DNA from: Felis catus
Lineage: Eukaryota
Reading direction: 5' to 3'
Length of the DNA: 64,000 nucleotides
Assembly: GCF_018350175.1 (NCBI RefSeq)
Contig: NC_058382.1
Coordinates: 57,848,001 to 57,912,000 of the forward strand
Numbering within the stretch: the first letter of the stretch is position 1; every line of letters starts with the position of its first letter. Under the pieces are notes generated by a model. That model ran no database searches. It saw only the letters and a list, made by a program, of their open reading frames with translations, and was not told the origin of the DNA. This document shows, in pieces, positions 44,792 through 54,471 of this stretch. Both the position numbers and the translations under genes were made by a program.

Positions 44792-54471
<9,680 letters not shown>

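Follow-up and report, generated by a model that had tools for sequence, protein, structure and literature searches.

The mini-exon of troponin I studied by Sterner and Berget is reportedly recognised as part of an exon-intron-exon unit, which is taken as a whole before its internal intron is removed, and units of this kind have a size limit of under about 300 nt. The neural microexons that Irimia et al. are said to have described in 2014 are alternative, SRRM4-dependent exons of 3-27 nt, in frame and deeply conserved. In minor/major exon-bridging (Wu and Krainer 1996, as cited; sections of Olthof et al. 2021, PMC8034651, and of the review PMC8329584), one exon carries a minor acceptor and then a major donor, and inhibition of the minor spliceosome leads to skipping of both flanking exons, as for Fam92a. 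The 6-nt microexon of the cat gene CIBAR2 (FAM92B) that we describe in this study, which lies in a 64-kb window (the whole stretch of DNA analysed), bears comparison with all of these systems. Like the troponin I mini-exon, it is apparently constitutive, too small for exon definition, and placed close behind its upstream exon, but the internal intron of its exon-intron-exon unit is U12-type, so that a different spliceosome removes it. At 224 nt, the CIBAR2 unit stays below the size limit, whereas the paralogue CIBAR1 (3300-nt intron) and corals (446-728 nt) exceed it. The CIBAR2 microexon is likewise 6 nt, in frame, and deeply conserved when set beside the neural microexons, yet it appears constitutive, and the gene is expressed chiefly in lung (in mouse, lung and testis) and not in brain. 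No TGC motif occurs in the 30 nt before the microexon acceptor, and a regulated microexon of the neural SRRM4 type was rejected on account of the missing TGC near the acceptor and brain expression near zero. The exon-bridging models, as given in those sections, assume an exon that holds factors at both ends, whereas the six bases of CIBAR2 lack the room, which makes this site a limiting case. We consider it likely that these six bases are an authentic coding exon of great age, included constitutively, with a minor intron upstream and a major intron downstream, and spliced by a sequential mechanism.

The gene at this site was identified as CIBAR2 from the match of its exons to the Pfam family FAM92 in a Pfam search, from felid CIBAR2 proteins being the best database matches of the window exons, and from tblastn of the cat protein P0002 against the window, which placed exons 4, 6, and 9 at 100% identity. 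It lies on the minus strand, as do all gene features given below in descending window positions. Its coding exons are exon 1 (about 54468-54449), exon 2 (about 53415-53176), exon 3 (52241-52173; 69 nt, 23 residues, with U2-type sites on both sides, from translation and tblastn of P0002), exon 4 (52086-51985; 102 nt), the microexon (51868-51863), exon 6 (51156-51052; 105 nt), exon 7 (about 47897-47784), exon 8 (45793-45692), and exon 9 (44896-44795), a list that agrees with the original prediction in giving number six to the exon that begins AETS. Exon 4 has a strong U2 acceptor (ccctcctccctcctttag), encodes the 34 residues AEIKK...SPSDRLTI (P0002 residues 109-142, 100% in tblastn), and ends in ACG ATT; exon 6 starts with GCAGAG, encodes AETSVQRA...KLTDLQ, and has as its first codon Ala145, the sole invariant column in the 39-sequence family alignment A1. 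The 34-aa exon 4, used as a query against its own genome, returned the window copy only, CIBAR1 surfaced with the Pfam family query, and Pfam recognised no family from exon 4 alone.

Read on the minus strand, the site runs ...ggctccttaacagcaccctccccag/TCCCAG/gtgagtgcc (slashes mark splice junctions), and the six bases TCCCAG encode Ser143-Gln144 of P0002 in the frame of the flanking exons. The microexon has the size and the splice signals of a coding microexon, with a length of 6 nt (at most 30), phase 0, AG before it, and GTGAGT after it, and all elements of the Ser-Gln microexon that had been proposed between a U12 acceptor and a U2 donor are present in the sequence. The AlphaFold2 model of P0002 (mean pLDDT 88) has helices at residues 62-134 and 139-208 with the loop SPSD (135-138) between them, a prediction that puts Ser143-Gln144 where helix three of the BAR domain makes its first turn. 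Repeats are found in the surrounding introns, including a run of 14 G (minus strand, 52150-52163) in the intron of 86 nt that separates exon 3 from exon 4, a (CA)14 microsatellite at 50980-51008 shortly after the end of exon 6, and a 29-nt tandem repeat at 48411-48863 (15.6 copies, 90% match; GCTCCTACTGTGTGCCAGGCCTCACATAA) in the intron that leads from exon 6 to exon 7. A carnivore-type tRNA-derived SINE has many copies in the window (e.g. 46374-46625, 47141-47407, 53773-53991, 55492-55719, and also 57029-57301, 60663-60884, 62717-62923), with translations that recur among the open reading frames, in keeping with a felid genome.

Exon 4 and the microexon are separated by a U12-type GT-AG intron of 116 nt (51984-51869, 72% G+C). 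Its 5' splice site, GTATCCTT (51984-51977), stands directly after the in-frame exon end and is the single copy in the window, and the second A of its branch-site box, TCCTTAAC (51890-51883), lies 15 nt from the last intron base (51869). These elements agree with the U12-type 5' splice site /RTATCCTT and with a branch box TCCTTRAY whose usual distance to the 3' splice site is some 10-15 nt, within a full range of about 8-21 nt. Taken singly, the motif counts are within chance, as the window has one copy of GTATCCTT where 0.85 are expected (at least one in 54/100 shuffles) and three of TCCTTAAC where 1.19 are expected (at least three in 14/100 shuffles), and the evidential weight lies in the arrangement. 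The arrangement is convincing because the lone GTATCCTT falls at an in-frame exon end and is followed 94 nt downstream, on the same strand, by a branch site at the right distance from an AG, because a donor with an 8/9 match comes six bases on and the Ser-Gln of the orthologues is thereby restored, and because the same layout is found again in the paralogue and in corals. No donor-like site with at least six matches lies elsewhere inside the 116-nt intron, and if the intron is kept in the mRNA the frame hits a TGA inside the downstream donor.

In the rows for this gene in the supplementary tables of Olthof et al. 2019 (PMC6717393), FAM92B/Fam92b is listed as a minor-intron gene in human and mouse, with the status 'Both', 5'SS scores of 91.6 and 88.5, and BPS scores of 89.5 and 82.3. 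The same rows give a minor intron of 173 nt in human (ENST00000539556) and 142 nt in mouse (ENSMUST00000048786), the donor ATCGTATCCTTC, and the branch sites GGTTCCTTAACA (human) and GAATCCTTAACA (mouse). The cat intron is in the same gene and at the same position, is also short, and has the donor ATTGTATCCTTC against the catalogued ATCGTATCCTTC and the branch site GGCTCCTTAACA against GGTTCCTTAACA and GAATCCTTAACA. The U12-type assignment of the upstream intron in the original prediction was correct in view of both the consensus fit of donor and branch site and the cataloguing of the human and mouse orthologues as minor. An intron of 173 or 142 nt with a branch site at its end can only end at the microexon acceptor, and we infer that the human and mouse reference transcripts must already contain the small exon; in the text and table rows of PMC6717393 that were covered, no mention of the downstream exon being only 6 nt was found.

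Downstream, the six bases are followed immediately by the strong U2-type donor GTGAGT (51862-51857), with CAG/GTGAGT matching CAGGTAAGT at 8/9 positions, which opens a U2-type intron of 706 nt (51862-51157) ending in AGCCAG. When this intron is kept after the microexon, 17 residues follow before a stop, 18 codons into the major intron. The terminal AGCCAG (51162-51157) also spells Ser-Gln in frame with exon 6, and this decoy does mislead a protein-to-genome aligner, as was anticipated, since tblastn of P0002 put SQAETS... on 51162-51052 at 100% identity with SQ read from AGCCAG. Some public models extend exon 6 upstream through the decoy (P0063, HFPQSQ-AETS; P0061, ...WSQAETS), and the public CIBAR2 orthologue P0102 has SQSQ. 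The serine of the decoy is variable, as the tiger has RSQ, Lycaon WSQ, and Hipposideros QSQ, but the panda has PGQ and a vole TAQ, and the decoy is missing before exon 6 in CIBAR1 (acceptor ttttgtag) and in corals (ttttccag, tgtttcag). CAG is the usual exon end before GT and the usual intron end alike, and the decoy looks like a product of chance layered on the acceptor CAG; in the corals, the CAG of the microexon was absorbed into the acceptor by blastn, with the same effect as the decoy. We rejected the decoy as an ancestral coding position, given its absence from CIBAR1 and corals and its variable first codon among mammals, and TTCCTAC before exon 6 was rejected as a second minor branch site for its poor match and its excessive closeness to the GG end. 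In a separate observation, the tiger isoform X2 (P0017) reads SQ and then residues encoded at window positions 51210-51250 (minus strand) in the frame of the 706-nt intron, which suggests an alternative acceptor about 60-100 nt upstream of exon 6 that would add about 30 residues, including the decoy SQ.

The paralogue CIBAR1 (on C46 of the same genome) has the same module, reading ...GTTATT/GTATCCTT and then TTTTCCTTTATG-N11-AG/TCACAG/GTGGGT, with a minor intron of 3300 nt, a branch-site A 13 nt before the intron end, and a major intron of 1206 nt. Its donor and branch strings in the cat, including TTTTCCTTTATG, are those published for human and mouse FAM92A in the corresponding rows of PMC6717393, and VISQAETE is present in the solved CIBAR1 structures 8ceg and 9uhd. 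According to sections of PMC12750831, CIBAR1 transcripts fall in SCNM1-deficient cells and CIBAR1 is used as a marker of minor-spliceosome failure, and in the limb of U11-null mice the exons on either side of the Fam92a minor intron are both skipped (part of 10.1101/2022.11.10.516037). These findings on SCNM1 and U11 concern the paralogue; the CIBAR2 minor intron, being U12-type, would be predicted to depend on U11, U12, U4atac, and U6atac for its removal.

Three processed CIBAR1 retrocopies are found in the genome, and two of them (C1 and C15) carry TCACAG between the two exons, reading ...T-TCACAG-(A/G)CAGAA. The third (L003, G000:C17:71723618-71726836, minus strand, about locus 1600-2050) has no microexon, and instead keeps the first 41 minor-intron bases (GTATCCTT...TGTAAG) and continues directly into exon 6. 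The C17 copy records an mRNA that was spliced via a cryptic major donor (AAG/GTATGC) at intron position +42, with the microexon skipped. A carnivore SINE with a target-site duplication was inserted later inside those 41 intron bases.

The module is also present in corals. When metagenome contigs were searched with the Pocillopora damicornis RefSeq protein P0273, 11 coral-like loci with 73-87% identity were obtained, and all six that hold the exon end plus the intron, from genomic or pre-mRNA contigs, read AAG ATT/GTATCCTT. In each of them, TTCCTTAAC, TTTCCCTAAC, or TTTTCTTAAC serves as a branch-like box at a distance of 11-15 nt from an AG, and a 6-nt exon and GTGAGT or GTGGGT come next. The minor introns of these corals measure 446-728 nt, and their microexon encodes Ser-Gln as TCACAG in L019 but Ser-Lys in the other five, as TCGAAG in L016 and L020 and as TCAAAG in L018, L023, and L024, the L019 version being identical, letter for letter, to the CIBAR1 microexon of the cat. 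Going by these matches, the whole module is probably older than the cnidarian-bilaterian split, unless it had two origins at the same codon. In Pocillopora damicornis itself, P0273 (294 aa) and the genome-project protein P0272 (292 aa) come from the same contig and differ only by SQ at KNKGKI[SQ]AEQ, and SQ is present in the transcript-derived Logan sequences of this protein. The contig L016 (8394 nt) runs for about 5 kb beyond locus position 3365, past the end of the genomic contig L020, and this extension could represent a long 3' UTR, transcriptional read-through, or a join made in assembly.

The original prediction had named alignment with CIBAR1 and the orthologues as a check, and the outcome was favourable, in that CIBAR1 has the same module and 66 of the 120 best orthologue proteins read I/L-SQ-AE across the junction. 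TQ or GQ takes the place of the dipeptide in a further 3/120, while it is missing from 16/120; the upstream exon leads into VSF/VSL... in 5/120, with GTATCC read as codons, and the remaining 23/120 are other models or do not cover the junction. Another seven models (7/120) continue from SQ into VS... and so run into the intron after TCCCAG, which fixes the acceptor at the microexon; the SQVSAPGLSG... of the panda models P0028/P0029 is homologous to the frame of the retained major intron in the window. In a family set of 110 representatives of 220 aa or more, the dipeptide is present in 57 (SQ in 12, SK in 6, TQ in 5, others fewer), absent from 20, and represented by one residue in 1; 20 representatives do not cover the junction, and 12 have extra residues there, several of which begin with VSF or VSL. 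An annotation error that is commoner than use of the decoy is to drop the dipeptide simply, which still leaves a GT...AG intron. Val-Ser or VSFPG / VSFL stands in place of Ser-Gln in P0088 (Odocoileus, 20 member sequences), P0027 (panda), and P0098 (Acomys), replacements that read as the first minor-intron bases (GTATCC...) taken for codons and thus as a second kind of mis-annotation at the junction. The Nannospalax protein P0072 (a UniRef/Ensembl model) reads ...MI-ISFL-ETS, and if this is intron read-through, the minor donor there would be ATATCC and not GTATCC, and the blind mole rat may thus have switched from the GT to the AT subtype.

At the RNA level, 0 reads at the site came from four cat runs, of which about 1-2% each was read, and the gene is lung/testis-restricted in human and mouse. 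For 51040-52260, no RNA run was listed, and the runs that hold 75-95% of this mostly intronic stretch are probably DNA. The use of TCCCAG rather than AGCCAG in the cat is thus best described as probable, and it rests on homology. Outside cat CIBAR2, the six bases are carried by sequences derived from mature mRNA, namely two of the three CIBAR1 retrocopies and the coral cDNA-like contig L015 (ATT-TCACAG-GTCGAG). According to the expression values in the rows for this gene in PMC6717393, FAM92B peaks in lung, with 13.5 in human, 6.1 in mouse lung and 6.6 in mouse testis, and values near zero in brain.

Skipping of the microexon on its own would need the minor donor to be paired with the major acceptor of exon 6, and since a minor donor normally does not pair with a major acceptor, the microexon should be lost mainly together with the upstream exon or via a cryptic major donor. 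The claim that the exon is effectively unskippable is therefore plausible for solo skipping, but it is wrong for paired skipping with the upstream exon, which is seen in U11-null Fam92a and in the model P0086, where exon 3 is joined to exon 6 with an in-frame loss of 108 nt. It is also countered by the C17 retrocopy of CIBAR1, in which the microexon was left out through a cryptic U2 donor.

We weighed these results against readings in which the microexon is alternative or does not exist. That it is real but alternative, with a substantial share of mRNA reading ATT-GCA from the minor donor to the exon-6 acceptor and yielding a protein two residues shorter, seems improbable to us. It would account for the 16/120 orthologue models and the 20/110 family representatives that lack exactly the dipeptide, whose deletion is in frame and adjoins a loop in the predicted structure, but software that is unable to place a 6-nt exon yields the same pattern, many of the SQ-less entries are from outside RefSeq (e.g. 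Ensembl-derived UniRef and 'hypothetical protein' records), and, among the 78 representatives whose sequence passes directly over the junction, 57 do have a dipeptide there. It would also account for the category CAT4 (downstream exon skipped) in the Fam92a rows of Table S7 of Olthof 2019 (PMC6717393), where the index is 0.46-1.0 for mouse Fam92a and 0.88 for human FAM92A in testis; we suspect these values to be an alignment artefact, because read aligners seldom place six bases. Against this reading stand, moreover, the two P. damicornis models on one contig that differ only by SQ, with SQ in the transcript-derived Logan sequences, and the CIBAR1 retrocopies, of which two of three have the six bases and the third used the cryptic major donor (+42) and not the minor donor. 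Hardly credible is the reading without any microexon, in which Ser-Gln is AGCCAG, exon 6 starts from 51162, and a single long minor intron would extend from GTATCCTT as far as a non-canonical end, ...CCGG. Some non-AG ends are tolerated by minor introns, the tblastn alignment of the cat protein to 51162-51052 is what this reading predicts, and TTCCTAC lies just upstream of exon 6, but that stretch matches TCCTTAAC at only 5/8 positions with its A 7 nt from the intron end, while a perfect TCCTTAAC is found 15 nt before the AG at the microexon. The reading is further at odds with the CIBAR1 and coral sequences, which have Ser-Gln or Ser-Lys without the decoy, with the RNA-derived copies that carry the microexon bases, with the SQVSAP... 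models that enter the intron after TCCCAG, with a first decoy codon that varies among mammals, and with the human and mouse introns in the catalogued rows of PMC6717393, which are 173 and 142 nt long and not about 830 nt.

A constitutive 6-nt exon, as we prefer, is too small for the usual cross-exon recognition, and the two introns would therefore be removed in sequence. Three coral contigs, L015, L016, and L025, are RNA-like because introns of the genomic contigs are missing from them. L015 is fully spliced. From L025, exactly the 728-nt minor intron (L019 9076-9803) is gone, with its major intron of 1.4 kb still in place; in L016, the microexon still sits between both of its introns although three others have been spliced out. 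None of the three has lost the major intron and retained the minor one. The ordered splicing suggested in the original prediction thus finds partial support: removal of the minor intron first is favoured by L025, L016, and the seven mammalian SQ-VS... models, and is opposed by the ground squirrel model P0114, which keeps the whole minor intron and lacks the major intron, i.e. the opposite order. On this small sample, we put the removal of the minor intron first at about an even chance or slightly better. In this order, cross-intron recognition of the minor donor and branch site by the U11/U12 di-snRNP would come first, excision of the minor intron would join the six bases to the upstream exon of 102 nt, and the resulting 108-nt exon, with a strong acceptor and the strong GTGAGT donor, could be handled by the major spliceosome as an ordinary one. 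The 224-nt block that exon 4, the 116-nt intron, and the microexon form in CIBAR2 may also be taken by the major spliceosome as a single unit at the outset, as proposed for troponin I, which cannot hold for CIBAR1 and the corals because their minor introns are 3300 nt and 446-728 nt long. The opposite order, in which the major intron leaves first, the six bases are joined to exon 6, and the minor intron then lies beside a 111-nt exon, strikes us as rather unlikely. Besides P0114, it is in keeping with abstracts in which minor introns are generally described as slowly spliced, which would favour the major intron first, and with the reported stimulation of minor-intron splicing by U1 at a downstream donor (Wu and Krainer 1996, cited in a section of PMC8034651), but its intermediate is seen in 0/3 of the coral RNA-like contigs, of which one shows the reverse and one keeps both introns though three others are gone, and the downstream intron is retained after SQ in the seven mammalian models and in the Logan transcript-derived protein P0026, which also reads SQ then VS.... 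A stricter form of the minor-first order, which we advance only tentatively and think doubtful as a whole, is that the minor acceptor, the 6-nt exon, and the major donor form an obligate hand-off module from before the cnidarian-bilaterian split, in which the minor spliceosome necessarily acts first, because only its cross-intron recognition could define a 6-nt exon, and in which the 'skipping' values are artefacts.

The microexon and its minor intron were already known, in that the minor intron is catalogued and Ser-Gln is in many RefSeq proteins, and their existence is no news because they are already in the reference annotation. In the literature covered by our search (subscription journals and most supplements were outside its scope), no description was found of a microexon bounded by a minor acceptor in the CIBAR family, nor any note, for the CIBAR module, of the 6-nt length, the sharing with cnidarians, or intermediates that point to an order. 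What is new is the same module in CIBAR1 and in two of its three retrocopies, its presence in 6/6 coral contigs that cover the site, and coral RNA contigs (n=3) that are consistent with the minor intron being removed first.

The site offers a natural limiting case for the cooperation of two spliceosomes across an exon, with six bases and no room for exon-bridging complexes, and its conservation as a whole module between corals and mammals speaks for an arrangement that functions well and is under constraint. It is also a trap for annotation and alignment, as the two residues are missing from about one in six to one in five public family models, intron sequence is translated in others, and the microexon may have been counted as skipped in a published splicing table. 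Expression of the ciliopathy gene CIBAR1 goes down when the minor spliceosome is impaired, and the 6-nt exon at the end of the CIBAR1 minor intron affects how such data are read. The hand-off module, if true, would explain why the U12-type intron has been retained in corals and in both vertebrate paralogues, and would also explain the sensitivity of CIBAR1 expression, and hence of cilium formation, to defects of the minor spliceosome.
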